A DNA stretch of 64,000 nt from Candidatus Parcubacteria bacterium (GTDB lineage Bacteria > Patescibacteriota > Minisyncoccia > Phycocordibacterales > CAIZLB01): the NCBI GenBank assembly GCA_039795775.1, contig JBDKLC010000005.1, positions 89,905-153,904 of the forward strand, written 5' to 3'. The notes beneath the pieces were generated by a model, which made no database searches, was not told the origin of the DNA, and saw only the letters and a program-made list of their open reading frames with translations. Of this stretch, positions 54,641-64,000 are shown piece by piece (position 1 is the stretch's first letter; each line of letters begins with the position of its first letter). Made by a program: the position numbers and the translations under genes.

Positions 54641-54680
54641 GGGGTTTTTGGGCTTTAGTTCATCTGTTATACTAAGTGCA

Positions 54681-55754
54681 ATGAAAACATCTGACATGAA
54701 ATCTACATCAAAAAAAGCTGAAACAGCATACGTTTCTTTATATAGAAAATATCGACCTGAAACATTTGCTGATGTAGTGGGGCAGGAACATGTGACAGAT
54801 CTTCTTGAAGAATCTATCAAACAAGGCAAGCTCGGACACGCATATCTTTTTTGCGGAAGTAGAGGTACAGGTAAGACATCAGTAGCTCGTATTTTTGCGC
54901 GAGCCATCGGCACAACACCAAACGACTTGTATGAAATTGATGCGGCATCAAATACAAGTGTTGAAGACATTCGATCTCTCAATGAAGCGGTAAATACAAT
55001 TCCGTTTGAATCAAAATACAAAGTGTATATTCTTGATGAAGTGCACATGCTTTCGAAGTCTGCGTTCAATGCGTTTTTGAAAACACTCGAAGAACCACCA
55101 AAGCATGTCATCTTTATTTTGGCGACAACAGAAATGGAGAAACTTCCTGAAACAATAGTTTCTCGATGCCAGAGTTTTGTTTTCAAACAGCCAACATCAG
55201 AACTATTGAAAAAAGTAGTACTCGATATTTCAAAAAAAGAAGGCGTACAGATCGAGTCTGCCGCAGCAGAGCTTGTTGCACTTCTTGGTGATGGATCATT
55301 CCGAGACACGCTCAGTATTTTGCAAAAAGTGTTGTCATTGTCTGGCACATCATCTACAGAAATAACATTGGCAGAAGTAGAACGAGTAACGGGAGCTCCA
55401 AAGTCTGCAATTGTATTTGGCATCGTCGATGCGCTCGCACAAAAAGACATCACAGCGGCGCTCGCGCACATCGCGGCCGCACGCGACGCTCATCTCGACA
55501 TGAAAGTATTTTCAAAACTTCTTCTATCACGACTTCGATATTTGTTGCTTCGATCAGTTTCTCCAGCACAAGCAATCGGTGGAGCTCAGGATTTTACACA
55601 AGACGAACAAAAGAAACTTGATGCACTCAAGATGGATACAGCAACAATCGTCAAAGCGCTCTACGCAATGCTCGATGCCAGTCAGCAGGTAGGGAAGTCA
55701 TATATTTCTACACTCCCTCTTGAGCTCGCTGTCGTACGACTCCTCCAAGCATAG
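54681..55754 (+). CDS. dnaX: DNA polymerase III subunit gamma/tau (short form)
   Basis: YRKYRPETFADVVGQEHV, Walker A GSRGTGKTS, ILDEVHMLS, and an arginine finger in SRCQ. The track ORF starts at 54648. Confidence 0.85.
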   Translation: MKTSDMKSTSKKAETAYVSLYRKYRPETFADVVGQEHVTDLLEESIKQGKLGHAYLFCGSRGTGKTSVARIFARAIGTTPNDLYEIDAASNTSVEDIRSLNEAVNTIPFESKYKVYILDEVHMLSKSAFNAFLKTLEEPPKHVIFILATTEMEKLPETIVSRCQSFVFKQPTSELLKKVVLDISKKEGVQIESAAAELVALLGDGSFRDTLSILQKVLSLSGTSSTEITLAEVERVTGAPKSAIVFGIVDALAQKDITAALAHIAAARDAHLDMKVFSKLLLSRLRYLLLRSVSPAQAIGGAQDFTQDEQKKLDALKMDTATIVKALYAMLDASQQVGKSYISTLPLELAVVRLLQA

Positions 55755-55833
55755 CTCTATAAAAAGAACACCTCCCACGCGATTGAACGCGGGGAGGGTT
55801 TTGAGTGTGGCTTTTGCAGCCTGTTCGTCGGGA

Positions 55834-56289
55834 CTATTCCCGGAAGGGGTCGCTTTCCAAAGTCCGGAAGACGATTTGGATGACTGCCCCGGTCTTGTTG
55901 TGGCGATACATCTCCGCTGTGGTGTCGGCGGTGCTGACGGAGAATTCCCCGAGATGGGTGAATTCACCTGACAGGCGGATGTGTTCGCAGAGTTTGGCGT
56001 GGGCCGCAACGCTTTGGACCCGAAAGCCTTCGTGCTGCGGAATGTGACTGCGGACGATCTCGAAACGCACGTGACGCAAATTGGGATTTTGCATGAAGAT
56101 CGTGTGCGCCGGGCCCGTTTCGCTGTCTTTGCCGACTTTTACTTCTTCCCAACAGAGCTGTTTGAAGAGATTGGCTTTTTCTTGGACGGTTTCTCCGATG
56201 ATGATCGGAATGGCCGTGTGTTCGTGGTGGTATGCCACTTGAGCTCCTGATAGGAGATTCAAAACGACAGAGTTGATGGGTGTTTTCAT
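55834..56289 (-). CDS. hypothetical protein, possible cupin-like metal-binding fold (GC-rich)
   Basis: About 151 aa from MKTPINS... GAQVAYHHEHTAIPIIIGE loosely fits G-x5-HxH-x-E of cupin motif 1. Competing ORFs on the opposite strand. Confidence 0.35.
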   Translation of the reverse strand: MKTPINSVVLNLLSGAQVAYHHEHTAIPIIIGETVQEKANLFKQLCWEEVKVGKDSETGPAHTIFMQNPNLRHVRFEIVRSHIPQHEGFRVQSVAAHAKLCEHIRLSGEFTHLGEFSVSTADTTAEMYRHNKTGAVIQIVFRTLESDPFRE

Positions 56290-56554
56290 GAGACGACTAT
56301 CTGATGGTACCGATGCTTGTCGGCAGTTGTTGTGCTGTGGTGTGCTAGTTTTCTCTTTCTTCAAGCAAAGAAAGTTGAAATACAATAACCCAAAATACTA
56401 GTTTTGTATAGGTTTTGAGTAGACGCTGAGAAAGAGATGAAAGGGGAGAATATGAAATACAACCTGACCCTTGAAAAAAAGCTTATTTTAGCGTATTTTA
56501 TAGGAACTATCTGTTGTGGGCTGCATGAGGCAGGGCAATATATAGACAATATAA

Positions 56555-56625
56555 TGGGGGATCGTCTAATGGTAGGACATCCGGTTTTGGTCCGGCGAAT
56601 TGGGGTTCGAGTCCCTATCCCCCAG
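56555..56625 (+). tRNA. tRNA-Gln (anticodon UUG)
   Basis: Hand-folded cloverleaf. Acceptor TGGGGGA/TCCCCCA with U1:A72, discriminator G73. D-arm GTCT/GGAC with GG in the loop. Anticodon loop TTTTGGT. T-arm TGGGG-TTCGAGT-CCCTA. No CCA encoded. Confidence 0.85.
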
Positions 56626-56631
56626 CAAAAC

Positions 56632-56668
56632 AAAAAAGCACCACTGTCAAGTGGTGCTTTTTTATTTT
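56632..56668 (+). terminator. rho-independent terminator after tRNA-Gln
   Basis: AAAAAAGCACCACT-gtca-AGTGGTGCTTTTTTATTTT. Confidence 0.85.
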
Positions 56669-56863
56669 GAGAGGATAATGAGGGGACGAGAAAGCCGGAC
56701 TGAAGTTGCGCAATGAGGAGCTTGCGACGAAGCGCAACGAGGGAGGCGGGGTCGACAGTATTTTTGCGAAGCAAAAATAACTGGTGACCGAGTCCTCATC
56801 ACTTGGCCAACCACAGCTAACACAAGTTGCGTCAAATAATTATTAACTAATAACAAAATTAAT

Positions 56864-57436
56864 ATGACAGATAAGAAGAATGATGATTTAGAAACTGTGA
56901 GGGTTATTACAGAAGCTCTTAAGTCATTTACGAAAGAAGAACGAGAACAAATAATAAGATGGAGTCTTGAAAGACTGGGGATGCAGGCTTTTAAGATTCA
57001 GTCTGCTAATGTGATGCCACAAGAGTCACCTTTGATGACATCACCACAACCATTTTTAAATTCTAGTCCGAAGAATATAAAATCTTTTGTACAAGAAAAA
57101 AATCCCAAGAGCGATGTTCAGTTTGCTGCGGTAGCTGCCTATTTTTATCGTTTTGAAGCATCAGACGGTGAAAAAAAAGAGAAAATCAGTGCAAAAGATT
57201 TGCAGGACGCTGGTCGTCAAGCTAGAGGCTTCGGATTTAAAGACGCTTTGAAGACTTTAAATAATTGTGTAAGACTTGGTTATTTTAATCGCGCAGGACG
57301 GGGTGAATTTGAATTAAATGCAGTCGGTGAGAATCTTGTAGCAATGGTACTTCCTGGGGGAATGAATGAAAGCGTCACGTCTCGAAAAATAAATACTAAA
57401 ATGAAACCAAAGATAACTAAGAAGTCTAAAAAATAG
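56864..57436 (+). CDS. hypothetical protein, first gene of tRNA-adjacent AT-rich island
   Basis: 190 aa with a basic C-terminal tail (KMKPKITKKSKK). About 37% GC. Confidence 0.5.
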   Translation: MTDKKNDDLETVRVITEALKSFTKEEREQIIRWSLERLGMQAFKIQSANVMPQESPLMTSPQPFLNSSPKNIKSFVQEKNPKSDVQFAAVAAYFYRFEASDGEKKEKISAKDLQDAGRQARGFGFKDALKTLNNCVRLGYFNRAGRGEFELNAVGENLVAMVLPGGMNESVTSRKINTKMKPKITKKSKK

Positions 57437-57440
57437 ATTT

Positions 57441-58259
57441 ATGGATACTCTGGGAATCATAGACCAGGCTATTCATGAGATTGCTCACCTTATAAAAAGT
57501 GTAAGCACTAATCGATCTGTTCAGATTAGAACTCATGATGAACAAGAATTAATAAAAGCAAATGTTTTTTCTTGGATCAAGGGACATCGTACATGTCTAC
57601 AATCATTATCTAATAATGAAATCTTAATTTCTGTTGATGAAAAATTCAGTCAACTGCTTGAGTTTTCTGATAAGCACACCAGTCGTTCACGTTATAAAAT
57701 CTTACTTAAATCCACAAAGGCCGAATTAATCAAGTTACGGTCAGAAGCAATTAAAATTGGAAATATTGCCTCAAATAAGACTGATAACTTTTCAAATTCA
57801 GCTCCAGATTTTTCACCTTTGGTTTATGACAAAAAAATGAAAACAATTTTGACGAATAGGTGGAACGAAATTACTAAATGTCTCGAGTGTGATGCGCCAC
57901 TTGCAGCAACCATTATGATGGGAGGTTTATTAGAAGCGTTATTTTTGGCGCGTGCAAATAGACTTGAGGACAAAAGCCCCCTTTATAAAGCAAAAGCTGC
58001 GCCTGTAGAAAAAAATACACGTAAAAATATACCTTTAGATAAATGGATGCTAAATTCATTTATCGAAGTTGCTGCTGAATTAGGTTGGATAAGAAAACCA
58101 GCAAAAGATCTGGGAACTATTTTACGTGATTACAGAAACTATATTCATCCAGAACGAGAATTACGTACAGGTTTTACTTTGGAAAAGGAAGATGCCTTAA
58201 TGTTTTGGCAAATATTTAATCAAGTTTCGAAGCAGATTATTATTAATGCGAATAAGTAG
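57441..58259 (+). CDS. hypothetical protein with C-terminal HEPN-like Rx6H motif (candidate RNase/abortive-infection effector)
   Basis: 272 aa. C-terminal helical region ...LGTILRDYRNYIHPERELR (R-x6-H). Tightly coupled, 4 nt after the preceding gene. Confidence 0.45.
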   Translation: MDTLGIIDQAIHEIAHLIKSVSTNRSVQIRTHDEQELIKANVFSWIKGHRTCLQSLSNNEILISVDEKFSQLLEFSDKHTSRSRYKILLKSTKAELIKLRSEAIKIGNIASNKTDNFSNSAPDFSPLVYDKKMKTILTNRWNEITKCLECDAPLAATIMMGGLLEALFLARANRLEDKSPLYKAKAAPVEKNTRKNIPLDKWMLNSFIEVAAELGWIRKPAKDLGTILRDYRNYIHPERELRTGFTLEKEDALMFWQIFNQVSKQIIINANK

Positions 58260-58362
58260 CCGTGCTCAAGTTACATCGATTTGGTATCATAAGATTCAAC
58301 TGAAAAGCTTTACTCAGCAATTTAGAAAGTATCGAAGGATCTAGAGCGGTCATAATCATTCT

Positions 58363-59916
58363 ATGCATATAAAAATTATCAATCTTAAAGACTTCAAGCG
58401 ATTCAATGATTTCACGATTGACCTTGGAGATTCAGCAAAAAAGATAGTTGCCCTCGTTGGTCCAAATGGTTCTGGTAAGAGCAGTGTGTTCGATGGTTTT
58501 GAGGAATTTTCAAGTCACTTCAAAGGGAGAGGAGGAAAGAAGGCCAGCTATTATGTAAAATCCATATATCAACCAGATCCGTTACCTGGTTCCCAAAACT
58601 ACGATTCGCAAACACATGTCTTTGTAACCTCTGATCAAGAACCTTCCGCATATACAAAAACAAGTTTTTATATCCGTAGTGCACATCGATTTACACCGAG
58701 ATTGGATGTGAATCAGATACAAAAACTTTCTGATGCAGAAAACGATGAGAAAAGGCCTCAATATTTAATTGATCCAGACTCTCGTCTTCAGGATAATTAC
58801 GAGCGACTGATTGGAAGATTTTATGACGATGTTTACGATAAGGAGCTTACAGGAAAGAAATGGTCGGAAGATAATATTGATGGTATCAATAAAGTTTTGA
58901 AAAAGATATTGGATATCACGGTTGTCTTCCTCGGGAATCCAGTAAAAGGAGAAGGAAGTCTATATTTTAAAAAGGGAACCTCGAGTAAATTTCCGTATGA
59001 AAACCTTTCTGCGGGAGAAAAAGAGGTAGTAGATTTAGTCTTAGACATATACGTCAAGAAGGATATTTATTCTGACAGTATAATTTGTATTGATGAGCCA
59101 GAACTGCATCTCAATACTTCAATTCAAAGAAAGCTATTGGTTGAGATTGAGAAGATTGTTCCAAATAACAGCCAGCTTTGGGTTGCAACGCATAGCATTG
59201 GTTTCTTAAGAGCACTTCAAGAGGACCTGAAAGACAAGACTGCGGTTATTGATTTCATTGGTCATAACTTCGATGAAACTGTTGTACTAAAACCTATTTC
59301 GGGAACAAGAAAAGATTGGACTAGAATATTTGAGACAGCCCTGGAAGATTTAACAGGTCTTCTTGCACCCAAAAAGATTATCTATTGTGAAGGACGACCA
59401 GATCCTTCTGCTACAGGTATGGAGCAGGGTTTGGATGCAGATGTTTATAATGAAATATTTTCACACAAATACCCTGACACCTTATTCGTATCAAGTGGCG
59501 GTGGAAATGCGATTAACAAAAGCGCTCTACTTGCTCTTAAGATCTTAAGAAAAGCATTCAATACAGTAGATCTGTATCTGCTTAGGGATAAAGATGAATT
59601 ATCAACTTCAGAACGAGATAGCTTTATTGCTGCCGACCCTTCAAACAAGATGCTTCTTCGACGTGAGCTTGAAAATTATCTCTTCGATAAAGAAATACTT
59701 AAAAAGTACTGTGTTGAGAATTCGAAGGTGTTCGACGAAGCGAAGTATGATAACAAAGTGACTTATATTAAAGAACAGGACCTGAAGCCTGTGCAGCAAG
59801 ATATTCAAGCATCGTGCCAAGAATCAGGTGATATGGCACATTTTAAAAGAGCTTTGGCGAAGTTTATATCTCAAGATACAGCAGTGTTTATCGAACTAGA
59901 ATCATTGGTATTTTAG
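58363..59916 (+). CDS. ABC-type ATPase fused to Toprim-like nuclease domain (OLD family / DUF4435-like; Gabija-GajA- or PARIS-like)
   Basis: 517 aa. Walker A VGPNGSGKSS, signature LSAGEKE, Walker B IICIDEPELHL, H-loop VATHS. C-terminal Toprim-like IIYCEGRPD (Glu) and LRDKDE (DxD). Confidence 0.7.
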   Translation: MHIKIINLKDFKRFNDFTIDLGDSAKKIVALVGPNGSGKSSVFDGFEEFSSHFKGRGGKKASYYVKSIYQPDPLPGSQNYDSQTHVFVTSDQEPSAYTKTSFYIRSAHRFTPRLDVNQIQKLSDAENDEKRPQYLIDPDSRLQDNYERLIGRFYDDVYDKELTGKKWSEDNIDGINKVLKKILDITVVFLGNPVKGEGSLYFKKGTSSKFPYENLSAGEKEVVDLVLDIYVKKDIYSDSIICIDEPELHLNTSIQRKLLVEIEKIVPNNSQLWVATHSIGFLRALQEDLKDKTAVIDFIGHNFDETVVLKPISGTRKDWTRIFETALEDLTGLLAPKKIIYCEGRPDPSATGMEQGLDADVYNEIFSHKYPDTLFVSSGGGNAINKSALLALKILRKAFNTVDLYLLRDKDELSTSERDSFIAADPSNKMLLRRELENYLFDKEILKKYCVENSKVFDEAKYDNKVTYIKEQDLKPVQQDIQASCQESGDMAHFKRALAKFISQDTAVFIELESLVF

Positions 59917-60593: not shown

Positions 60594-61367
60594 ATGTCAT
60601 TAACTCTCCATAAAAACTGCAAATCTCTTCTTGAAGCCTTCAAATCAGGTAAGCTCGGTCAGACAGTAATGCCTGAAGATTCTAATCCTGGATTTTCTGA
60701 TAAAGATGCGGAAATGAGAATTGCATACTTTACGCTACCGATGGCTCTCAACTATCAGCGAGATAGCTACAAGCTTTGGGAAGCTGCTCTCAAGACCTTT
60801 AATGATTCTGAAACTAAGTTTGTATTTGATGTGGTCAAAGTTTCCAAAGCATCGGAAGACGATGTTCGAAAAGCTTTGATGAAATATAAGGTCGCACTTC
60901 AACCGAACAAACATATAAATACATGGAGGACAATCGCCAAGACGATAGCAAATAACTGGGGATCATTTACTAAGTTTTTTGAAGCAACACAAAATGATTT
61001 TCTGAAACTAAAGCAAATAGTAATCATTGAACACAAGAAGGGTTTCCCATATTTGTCTGGACCAAAGATATTTAATTATTGGTCTTTCATAATCAGTACT
61101 TACGGGGGTATCAAGCTAACGAATCGCGATCATATTGAAATTGCTCCTGATACTCACATCACACAGTGTTCGGTAAAGCTTGGAGTTATTACTAAAGAAG
61201 AGGCAGAGTTGCTTACTAAAGATGCTATTTCAGAACGATGGAGGGAATTGCTCAAGGAGAGCGGTATTGACCCAATTGATATGCACCCACCACTCTGGTT
61301 TTGGAGTAGAAATGGATTTGTGTTTGAAATTAATCCCTCAGAAACTCGAACCGAAAAAAGAGTATAA
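60594..61367 (+). CDS. HhH-GPD superfamily DNA glycosylase-like protein
   Basis: 257 aa. LSGPKIFNYWSFI...IEIAPDTHITQCSVKLGVI...HPPLWFW parallels EndoIII LPGVGRKTA...AVDTHVFRVSNRLGL...HHWLILHG (helix-hairpin-helix, Lys, Asp). Confidence 0.45.
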   Translation: MSLTLHKNCKSLLEAFKSGKLGQTVMPEDSNPGFSDKDAEMRIAYFTLPMALNYQRDSYKLWEAALKTFNDSETKFVFDVVKVSKASEDDVRKALMKYKVALQPNKHINTWRTIAKTIANNWGSFTKFFEATQNDFLKLKQIVIIEHKKGFPYLSGPKIFNYWSFIISTYGGIKLTNRDHIEIAPDTHITQCSVKLGVITKEEAELLTKDAISERWRELLKESGIDPIDMHPPLWFWSRNGFVFEINPSETRTEKRV

Positions 61368-62149: not shown

Positions 62150-62180
62150 AAAGTGTATTTAATATCGGAATTATATTATA

Positions 62181-64000
62181 ATGGGCTCAAATATGAGCAA
62201 GTATTTTTTCTATTTTTTGTTAATAGCAACGTTGAGCGTCACACCCGTATCTTCCGTATTTGCCGCTAAACTAGAACGTCCACTAACAGTCGGTTCTTCG
62301 GGCGACGATGTTACAGTTTTACAAGAAAATTTGAAAAAATTAGGATTCTTTAAGGCAGATGTTAATGGTTTTTTTGGCCCTATCACTAAAGCGGCGGTTG
62401 AAGCTTTTCAATTAAATAAAGGCATTGCATCTCCAAGTATGCCCGGTTTCGGTTATGTCGGTCCAAAAACTAGAGAACTATTTAACTCTATTATTGTTGG
62501 AAGTACTACCACAACTACCATAAGTGCTACCAATACGACACCAATCAAAACGGGTACTATTGAAAATAATCTATCTCTCGTACTTTCTCGTGATTTATAT
62601 GTTGGAATCCAAGGCGAAGATGTAAGACAATTGCAACTATTTCTTAAAGCTCAGGGATTTTATACCCAGCCCTCGATTACAGGTTACTTTGGCACCGTAA
62701 CAAAAAATGCGGTAGCGGCTTTTCAACGAGCTAATACTCTACCAATGACTGGACGTGTTGGACTTCAAACACGTGCAAAAATTGTTGTTAGTAACCCGCC
62801 GACAATACATATTTCTAATACAGTACCTACGCGACCCCGTATAGTTCTTTCCAGCCGACCACCTGAGCCGACGGTTGTACCTGCAACTACAGCTGGACCG
62901 AATCTCTCTGTGACTGTCTCAGAGGATGATGCTGATAATAGTGTCACACCCAACCAGTCAATCACATATACTGTTGCCATTTCGAATAGTGGAACGACTA
63001 ATGCGGGGACTTCGTTTACCGCAAATATTCCAACTGATATGGGTAATCCAGGGACATTCAGCTATTCAAACTGTGGTGGTGCAAGCGAATCGTTTGGTTC
63101 ACCGACGCTCACGGTTTCTTCTATAAGTATAAGCAAGGGAGCAACATGTACTGTTACATTTGTCATAAGTGTTGATACTCCGTTGAATGAAGGTACTGGT
63201 CTAACAGTAAGTGTGGATGTAGTCGCCGCAGCTCAAGGTGGAAATAATCCAGACTCTGTATCAGCGAGTGCTTTGACAGTAGATGCTACTCCAGCTCTCA
63301 CAGTTACATCAGCTGAAAATGATGCTGATAATACTGTCACACGTAGTCAAGATATTACATATACTCTCACAATTGATAATACTGGGGACGGTTATGCAAC
63401 TGGTGTTGATCTTACTGATACCATAGTCGGTGACGTGAGTGATGTTGGCACGTTTGGATTTTCAGGTTGCGGTTCGAACTATACAAATAATTCTTCAGGT
63501 CAGACATTGAGCGTCTCAAACGTAGAGATTGCCGTGAGCACCGACTGTATCATTACATATCATGTATCAGTAGATAGTGATGCAGATCATCAAGGAACCA
63601 TTACAAACAACGCTGATGTGGCTGCGGCAGACGAAGGCGGAAATAATCCCAATGCGACAAGTACAAGTGCACTTACTGTGGATGTGCCAATTGTATCTTA
63701 TTGGGCTGATGGTCTTTCTGTCGGAAATATGGATTCATCGACCAATTGGCAAGAGCAAAGTGGTCTTGCGACTCCACATCTAGCGGCGAACTCAAATTAT
63801 TTATGGAGTGTATCAGATTCACCAGCAAACCAAATCCAGGCTATCAACACTACAAATGCGGCTAATTTGGGTATTCTCACATTGACAGGTCAGACAGCAA
63901 TGGTCGATCTTGAAGACATTGAATGTGCATCTGTTGGTGGGACAAACTATTGCTATGCAATGGATTTTGGAAATAACGGAAACACCGCTAACTCACGTGG
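62181..64000 (+). CDS. large secreted protein: 2 peptidoglycan-binding (PG_binding_1-like) domains + DUF11-type conserved repeats (runs off window end)
   Basis: Signal peptide MGSNMSKYFFYFLLIATLSVTPVSSVFA. Two LxxGxxGxDVxxLQxxLKxxGFxxxxxxGxFGxxTxxAVxxFQ repeats. Repeated VT.NQSITYTVAISNSGTT / VTRSQDITYTLTIDNTGDG units. Frame verified to stay open to 64000. Confidence 0.7.
   Translation, partial: MGSNMSKYFFYFLLIATLSVTPVSSVFAAKLERPLTVGSSGDDVTVLQENLKKLGFFKADVNGFFGPITKAAVEAFQLNKGIASPSMPGFGYVGPKTRELFNSIIVGSTTTTTISATNTTPIKTGTIENNLSLVLSRDLYVGIQGEDVRQLQLFLKAQGFYTQPSITGYFGTVTKNAVAAFQRANTLPMTGRVGLQTRAKIVVSNPPTIHISNTVPTRPRIVLSSRPPEPTVVPATTAGPNLSVTVSEDDADNSVTPNQSITYTVAISNSGTTNAGTSFTANIPTDMGNPGTFSYSNCGGASESFGSPTLTVSSISISKGATCTVTFVISVDTPLNEGTGLTVSVDVVAAAQGGNNPDSVSASALTVDATPALTVTSAENDADNTVTRSQDITYTLTIDNTGDGYATGVDLTDTIVGDVSDVGTFGFSGCGSNYTNNSSGQTLSVSNVEIAVSTDCIITYHVSVDSDADHQGTITNNADVAAADEGGNNPNATSTSALTVDVPIVSYWADGLSVGNMDSSTNWQEQSGLATPHLAANSNYLWSVSDSPANQIQAINTTNAANLGILTLTGQTAMVDLEDIECASVGGTNYCYAMDFGNNGNTANSR

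Follow-up and report, generated by a model that had tools for sequence, protein, structure and literature searches.

A compact family of predicted single-chain ABC ATPase-Toprim proteins related to merged PARIS AriAB, with a member in Candidatus Parcubacteria

Proteins that join an ATP-binding cassette (ABC) ATPase to a Toprim domain rank with the most widespread modules of anti-phage defence. OLD, Gabija, PARIS and some retron effectors are of this kind, and at least two such systems were recently shown to kill via tRNA cutting. PARIS comprises 11 clades, two of them merged, with a single fusion origin (PMC11464382, Burman et al. 2024). In Escherichia coli PARIS, anti-restriction proteins such as Ocr activate the system and tRNA is cleaved (PMC11464382, PMC12409363); AriB is a two-metal tRNase in which the E26A substitution abolishes tRNA cleavage and lysines K60 and K64 hold the anticodon loop (PMC12409363). 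P2 OLD is reported to cleave tRNAs in vivo while DNA is not degraded (bioRxiv 10.64898/2026.07.10.737580). HEC-04 is a validated ATPase-Toprim fusion whose defence requires both Walker A and the Toprim site, and the same work describes ABC ATPase defences that lie embedded within larger systems (bioRxiv 10.1101/2024.01.29.577857). PrrC serves as the model for a backup that fires once restriction is inhibited (bioRxiv 10.1101/2024.01.29.577857), and its effector is a HEPN-type domain (PMC3710099). Here we analyze a gene at positions 58363..59916 (plus strand, stop codon included) of a 64,000-nucleotide stretch, hereafter the window, of contig JBDKLC010000005.1 (assembly GCA_039795775.1, positions 89,905 to 153,904) from a Candidatus Parcubacteria bacterium. 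Its ATG-started open reading frame (ORF) encodes a 517-amino-acid (aa) single-chain protein that a first-pass annotation, made from the sequence alone, had read as an ABC ATPase fused to a Toprim nuclease of OLD or DUF4435-like type.

The 517-aa protein is 100% identical to a protein (P0001) on a 509-kb contig of a Candidatus Parcubacteria metagenome-assembled genome. More than 3000 homologs were found, with E values down to 1e-260 and full-length alignment among the matches listed, and nearly all of the 120 listed homologs are 510 to 560 aa long and align end to end. Because the exact protein is on record and has more than 3000 homologs, its motifs lie far beyond what chance would produce, and 58363..59916 is a real, conserved gene. 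A profile of the family's C-terminal part recovers 718 clusters at 50% identity, 424 of them with E <=1e-10, and nearly all have the same ~500- to 560-aa architecture or are fragments. Members are scattered across phyla and occur in Patescibacteria, Alphaproteobacteria and Ignavibacteria, and their source labels read only "AAA family ATPase" or "predicted ATPase."

Residues 1-290 (58363..59232, plus strand, as for all features of the gene given below) form an ABC ATPase head of the AAA_15/AAA_21/SMC_N type. Pfam matches residues 1 to ~290 to AAA_21 (7.8e-18), AAA_15 (4.7e-16), and SMC_N (1.4e-09). The AlphaFold2 model of the full protein has a mean predicted local distance difference test score (pLDDT) of 85, and its Foldseek matches are dominated by ATPases, with the ABC ATPases from Septu PtuA, retron Eco8, and GajA at E ~1e-10. 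Motif conservation was scored in 49 full-length homologs, and the four ATPase motifs that the first-pass annotation had picked out are present and invariant or nearly so. These are the Walker A motif or P-loop, GPNGSGKS (residues 33-40, 58459..58482), with G33, P34, N35, G36, G38, K39, and S40 invariant; the ABC signature, LSAGE (residues 215-219, 59005..59019), with L215, S216, G218, E219, and the adjoining K220 invariant; the Walker B motif and D-loop, IICIDEPE (residues 240-247, 59080..59103), with I243, D244, catalytic E245, P246, and E247 invariant; and the H-loop, ATHS (residues 275-278, 59185..59196), invariant throughout at A275, T276, H277, and S278. Membership among Septu PtuA or retron effectors was rejected, as the matches are limited to the ATPase. 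NCBIfam matches all fell far below threshold, for example those to PtuA (61.8 bits, cut-off 500) and restrict_AAA_1 (21, cut-off 300), and when the PDB was searched by HMM using the profile of the full-length family, the matches were to ATPases only.

The insertion between the P-loop and the signature is short, consisting in the model of low-confidence loops and a two-helix hairpin (residues 141-182). From the secondary structure of the model and the limits of the AriAB alignment, we place it at residues ~56-188 (58528..58926); it is ~100 aa shorter than its merged AriAB counterpart (residues 1-188 here versus AriAB 23-310).

A linker (residues 291-335, 59233..59367), modeled as one beta-strand and a helix at 316-331 and colinear with AriAB ~429-455, connects the ATPase to a predicted Toprim core (residues 336-445, 59368..59697), in which strands at 338-342, 373-377, 403-408, and 428-430 alternate with helices. 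Conservation in this part was assessed in a broader C-terminal alignment of 72 representatives taken from an exhaustive HMMER scan. The glutamate of IIYCEGRPD and the DxD of LRDKDE, to which the first-pass annotation had pointed, both stand out. The predicted catalytic E343 (C-E-G, 59389..59391) lies where the first Toprim strand ends, is glutamate in 71 of the 72 representatives, and pairs with the invariant AriAB E466; we infer that it is the equivalent of AriB E26. The DxD, D409-K-D411 (59587..59595), closes the third strand, and its two aspartates, each present in 70 of 72, pair with the invariant AriAB D525 and D527. In the 49 full-length homologs, I339-I-Y-C-E343-G and L407-R-D409-K-D411-E are invariant or nearly so. 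A candidate second-metal ligand, D358 (G-L-D-A, 59434..59436), is found in all 72 and pairs with the invariant AriAB D474, and E437-N438-Y439 (within RRELENYLFD, 59671..59679; E437 and Y439 in 71 of 72 each) pairs with E549, N550, and Y551 of AriAB (HLENYLLE), likewise invariant. This near-invariant acidic cluster of E343, D358, D409, D411, and E437 is of a type that coordinates two metal ions. The chain ends in a C-terminal helical bundle (residues 446-517, 59698..59913), modeled with pLDDT >90, in which K475 is found in 70 of 72 representatives and which is ~90 aa shorter than the AriAB tail.

Two further observations concern these domains. Cys342 (window 59386-59388), just ahead of the predicted catalytic glutamate, is invariant in 72 of 72 representatives, at a site where the AriAB clade has F-E-G. 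Two long proteins, P0297 (665 aa) and P0346 (683 aa), belong to the same family and carry insertions, one a low-complexity stretch of ~100 aa between the Toprim DxD and ENY motifs and a second in the ATPase insertion; both sites evidently accept large additions.

In PADLOC, the whole protein matches the merged PARIS model AriAB PDLC02981 best (6.6e-29), and the alignment covers residues 170-448, reaching far beyond the ATPase. When the C-terminal 227 aa are searched alone, AriAB is the sole PADLOC model to match (8.7e-4). A plasmid tblastn search led to a 720-aa Lichenicola protein, a genuine merged AriAB that scores 656 bits across the full PADLOC model, and the 517-aa protein is colinear with it over residues 161-486 (E 2e-14, 28% identity). 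Profile-profile comparison of the family with 30 AriAB-clade proteins gave 99.2% probability and an E value of 3e-19, a score that includes the ATPase C-lobe. For this reason, the 72-representative C-terminal alignment was built and compared with AriAB cut after the H-loop, which gave 95.9% probability and E 5.8e-9 over 133 columns, with controls (reversed, unrelated, and five column-shuffled targets) at E 0.08-0.33 and <1% probability. The same alignment pairs S377/G379 with AriAB S493/G494, and all of the AriAB partners are invariant in their own clade. As fold, sequence profile, and motif placement agree, we regard the predicted assignment of the C-terminal domain to the Toprim fold, with homology to the nuclease domain of AriAB and AriB, as secure, and the PADLOC match, the profile-profile alignment, and the motif pairing together support the initial reading of an ATPase joined to an OLD/DUF4435-like Toprim nuclease. 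The ranking of AriB above OLD as a relative leans mainly on sequence evidence.

Merged AriAB, exemplified by the Lichenicola cladoniae plasmid protein WP_171837336.1 (PADLOC PDLC02981), resembles the 517-aa protein in having, on one polypeptide, an ABC ATPase of the AAA_15/21 type with a DUF4435-type Toprim behind it. The two are colinear from the ABC signature through the Toprim core, and the E-G, (F/L)D, S-G, DxD, and ENYL elements are common to both and paired. They nevertheless differ in extent and detail. The 517-aa protein reaches 99 bits over ~45% of PDLC02981, with its best stretch at 264-529 of 694, whereas a true member reaches 656 bits over 1-693; against the second AriAB model, PDLC02982, it reaches 39.6 bits in the ATPase only. 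Merged AriAB proteins are ~698 aa long; compared with them, the ATPase insertion here is short by ~100 aa and the C-terminal tail by ~90 aa (451-517 versus AriAB 563-720). C-E-G stands here in place of F-E-G, and identity is 28%. Judged by sequence, the protein resembles merged AriAB in architecture but is not a member of the described AriAB clades. In two-gene PARIS (AriA plus AriB; PDB 8v46 and 8ux9), sensor and nuclease are separate chains, whereas here they are a single chain, from which no AriB-like dimer can be released, and the 517-aa protein retains little of the AriA insertions from which the hexamer is built.

Class 1 OLD (P2 Old; Thermus scotoductus OLD, PDB 6p74) shares with this protein a single gene without a fixed partner, an ABC ATPase with a short helical insert, and a C-terminal Toprim. 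Lengths are also similar: Thermus scotoductus OLD (6p74_A) has 528 aa, so the protein is not undersized for class 1 OLD at 517 aa, contrary to what had been supposed at first, although it is short beside merged AriAB, which is ~180 aa longer. However, PF20469 is unmatched and the closest structural match is not a class 1 OLD, and the family is not class 1 OLD by Pfam or structural criteria. Of the Pfam profiles named with the first-pass annotation, AAA_21 is found but neither PF20469 nor DUF4435, and Foldseek with the full model finds the GajA ATPase. Unlike Gabija GajA (class 2 OLD), the protein has no adjacent UvrD-like GajB, as had been remarked from the start; the neighboring ORFs, of 190, 272, 166, and 257 aa, are without a helicase domain, and no helicase partner is conserved in any homolog context. 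In the absence of this partner, the protein is not GajA. HEC-04, found in Hma systems, is a further likeness, as a single-chain ABC ATPase plus Toprim inside larger defence operons; its Toprim was compared in its own paper with Bp OLD and not with AriB (bioRxiv 10.1101/2024.01.29.577857). HEC-04 is absent from the best 25 of 126 PADLOC matches, although the presence of a HEC-04 model in that library is unconfirmed (HEC-01A models are present). The 517-aa protein and its homologs make up a distinct, sizeable family within the OLD/PARIS superfamily whose nearest named relatives are the merged AriAB proteins.

To see in what company the gene is found, the window was compared with eight homolog contexts, nine contexts in all. 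Two homologs lie inside type I restriction-modification (R-M) operons: P0034 (L007 2602-11190), in the order hsdM, small ORF, hsdS, homolog, 209-aa ORF, hsdR, and P0033 (L013 2338-10576), in the order hsdM, small ORF, hsdS, homolog, hsdR. A third (L015 3917-10251) has a 693-aa N6/N4 methyltransferase on one side and an 895-aa ResIII helicase on the other, after which come SIR2 and DUF87 genes. A fourth (L016 6001-11153) lies near a serine recombinase and ~460 bp upstream of a Gabija-like pair, made up of a 571-aa ATPase with an OLD-like Toprim (PF20469 match) and a 466-aa UvrD-type helicase; because the homolog adjoins this pair, two distinct ABC ATPase-Toprim systems are adjacent there. In L004, the homolog is followed by a helix-turn-helix gene, an ORF of no assigned family, and a methyltransferase, and a relative with 36% identity is located among toxin-antitoxin genes on Zymomonas plasmid pZMOB01. 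A Rhizorhapis homolog is among housekeeping genes, and in another member of the Patescibacteria (L008 4621-7581) the homolog directly follows dnaX. The homolog contexts show the pattern of a mobile defence gene. No conserved partner gene was found in the nine contexts, and the neighbors differ in all of them; a direct comparison of the window's neighbors with those of the L008 homolog showed no resemblance, and no family library matches the window's neighbors. The ATPase-Toprim protein is a single-gene system.

The positions between hsdS and hsdR in L007 and L013 are the classic position of PrrC, which combines an ABC-type NTPase head with an RNA-cutting effector. The differences are that the effector here is a predicted Toprim, that no sequence match to PrrC was found, and that the window holds no R-M operon; type I R-M embedding is absent from the window and five other contexts.

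Some of this evidence could also be read in terms of DNA repair or chromosome maintenance, the protein being a non-immune housekeeping factor with a RecF/RecN/SbcC-like ATPase and a RecR-style DNA-binding Toprim. Weak N-terminal matches to Rad50, SMC, and RecF models, the location of the gene downstream of dnaX in both the window and L008, and the Rhizorhapis copy among housekeeping genes all lean this way. We regard this explanation as very improbable. With regard to dnaX, the gene lies downstream of it in the window (at 54648-58363) as in L008, but with a tRNA-Gln and a two-gene cassette intervening; in small Patescibacteria genomes, dnaX may be followed by a variable hotspot.

We modestly favor the view that the protein is a self-contained anti-phage abortive-infection protein with a tRNA-cutting Toprim. 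The protein would be kept inactive as an oligomer, a dimer or higher, through contacts of the ATPase head and the insertion. A phage-derived cue, which might be an anti-restriction protein, the loss of a neighboring restriction complex, or an aberrant nucleic acid, would alter the ATP-bound state of the head and so expose the Toprim site. The Toprim would then cut host tRNAs by two-metal catalysis, and translation and phage growth would stop. As sensor and effector are one chain, activation would come about by rearrangement, whereas two-gene PARIS releases its nuclease, and the protein, lacking most of the AriA insertion, would have to sense its cue in another way. The preference for tRNA as the probable target is by analogy, as the closest relative, AriB, is a two-metal tRNase and P2 OLD is reported to cleave tRNAs in vivo.

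A more specific proposal, which we put forward tentatively and consider rather unlikely, is that of a minimal one-chain "guardian of restriction." Here the protein would be wired, like PrrC, to type I and type III restriction complexes, and its Toprim would fire when a phage anti-restriction protein disables them. The AriA insertions would have been lost since the state of the restriction complex is read directly, without a hexameric cage to capture the phage protein. This wiring would be reflected in genes placed between hsdS and hsdR and in those that separate mod from res, and free-standing copies, such as that in the Parcubacteria genome studied here, would be stand-alone sensors.

Several results weigh against the proposal of a defence tRNase, whose trigger, oligomeric state, and substrate we infer alike. 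Concerning the domain itself, the C-terminal part alone, searched against Pfam at two cut points with E up to 10, matches no family, and neither DUF4435 (PF14491) nor the OLD-like Toprim PF20469 is matched by the whole protein or the C-terminal part. A 30-sequence C-terminal profile run against the PDB gave two chance-level matches and no AriB, and an hhalign comparison of the 30-sequence C-terminal alignment with full-length AriAB was misregistered (E 0.0027, 11%). Foldseek with the C-terminal model found nothing significant in the PDB, the best E value being 0.065 and a small Toprim protein appearing at rank 6, and the Toprim core is modeled at moderate confidence only (pLDDT 52-85). Concerning function, ~100 aa of the ATPase insertion is missing, corresponding to the AriA region that builds the hexamer and is thought to recognize the trigger; the "tweezer" lysines K60 and K64 of AriB have no obvious counterpart, helix 357-366 (DADVYNEIFS) having no lysine, and the substrate may therefore differ from that of AriB; no restriction system adjoins the gene in the window; and purified OLD and GajA enzymes cut DNA in vitro (PMC10568477).

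On another reading, the C-terminal domain is no nuclease at all, its likeness to Toprim being that of a generic alpha/beta sandwich, and the protein is an ATPase with a regulatory or binding tail. We find this hard to credit. The failure to match DUF4435 was considered as an argument against kinship with AriAB and given low weight, as the true Lichenicola AriAB fails too. Across 30 family members, DUF4435 is touched by one, at 4.8e-4, and PF20469 is matched by none. As an observation on the profile itself, Pfam DUF4435 under-detects merged AriAB: the Lichenicola protein (L011 1947-4106) has no PF14491 match at E 0.01, and only ~40% of 120 listed AriAB-clade members (P0121-P0240) carry a precomputed PF14491 match.

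A further rival idea is that an ATPase-regulated Toprim nicks or degrades phage or host DNA, immunity then arising from DNA damage and not from a translation block. This is unlikely in our estimate, if far from negligible. AriAB and AriB, not OLD, are closest by every sequence measure, PF20469 is unmatched, and P2 OLD itself has been reported to act on tRNA in vivo with DNA left intact (bioRxiv 10.64898/2026.07.10.737580). A tRNA-directed Toprim stays the reading that we favor.

In the window, the order of genes is dnaX (54648-55754), a minus-strand ORF, tRNA-Gln with a hairpin, the 190-aa ORF, the 272-aa ORF, and the ATPase-Toprim gene, which is followed on its 3' side by the 166-aa ORF, the 257-aa ORF, and a family 2 glycosyltransferase. 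The tRNA-Gln (UUG) spans 56555-56626, with the strong hairpin AAAAAAGCACCACTGTCAAGTGGTGCTTTTTT after it. G+C content is 0.36-0.38 over 57-60 kb versus ~0.42-0.47 on the flanks. Despite this lower G+C, an integrated island at tRNA-Gln was rejected as unsupported, since there is no integrase within the block and no direct repeat of the tRNA-Gln end. Promoter and terminator scans were at chance level and uninformative.

The 190-aa ORF (56864-57436, plus strand) and the 272-aa ORF (57441-58259, plus strand) make up a two-gene cassette that is conserved and moves on its own, apart from the ATPase-Toprim gene. The 272-aa protein has at least 426 homologs, including some in Pacebacteria, Verrucomicrobia, and Longimicrobiales, and in both other genomes examined, a 191- to 200-aa homolog of the 190-aa ORF (38-40% identity, E ~1e-39) directly precedes the 272-aa homolog. 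No convincing match for the pair was found in Pfam, PADLOC (one marginal "HEase" match at 8e-4), NCBIfam, PHROGs, or the PDB. R229, Y231, R232, N233, H236, and P237 of the 272-aa protein are invariant (RDYRNYIHP), in loose likeness to the HEPN Rx4-6H motif; a HEPN identity was considered and set aside, with neither a PDB nor a Pfam match. The pair may be an undescribed toxin or defence pair. Farther downstream, the 257-aa ORF (60594-61367, plus strand) has sub-threshold matches to AGOG N-glycosylase/DNA lyase (1.4e-3) and DUF2400 (7.7e-3) and may be a DNA glycosylase of the helix-hairpin-helix type. A frame at ~62163-64000 (plus strand), longer than 600 aa and running past the window end, opens with a signal-peptide-like segment and contains two peptidoglycan-binding-like repeats as well as repeated Thr/Ser-rich modules; it is probably a surface protein.

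The joining of ABC ATPase and Toprim, its single-chain forms, and embedding in restriction operons were already known, and the gain here is incremental. What is new is a compact family, labeled only as ATPase and missed by the DUF4435 and OLD-Toprim profiles of Pfam, together with its size, its spread, which includes Patescibacteria, and its recurrent PrrC-like placement. If these are defence proteins, a sizeable unannotated clade of at least 718 clusters at 50% identity would join the catalogues of defence systems, and such a system would be documented in a Candidatus Parcubacteria metagenome-assembled genome. The family would also offer a small, partner-free model of an ATPase head that gates a covalently attached Toprim nuclease, and its R-M-embedded copies would test whether PrrC-style backup was reinvented with a Toprim effector. 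If the link to restriction complexes should prove true as well, these would be among the smallest complete sensor-effector immune proteins in very small bacterial genomes.

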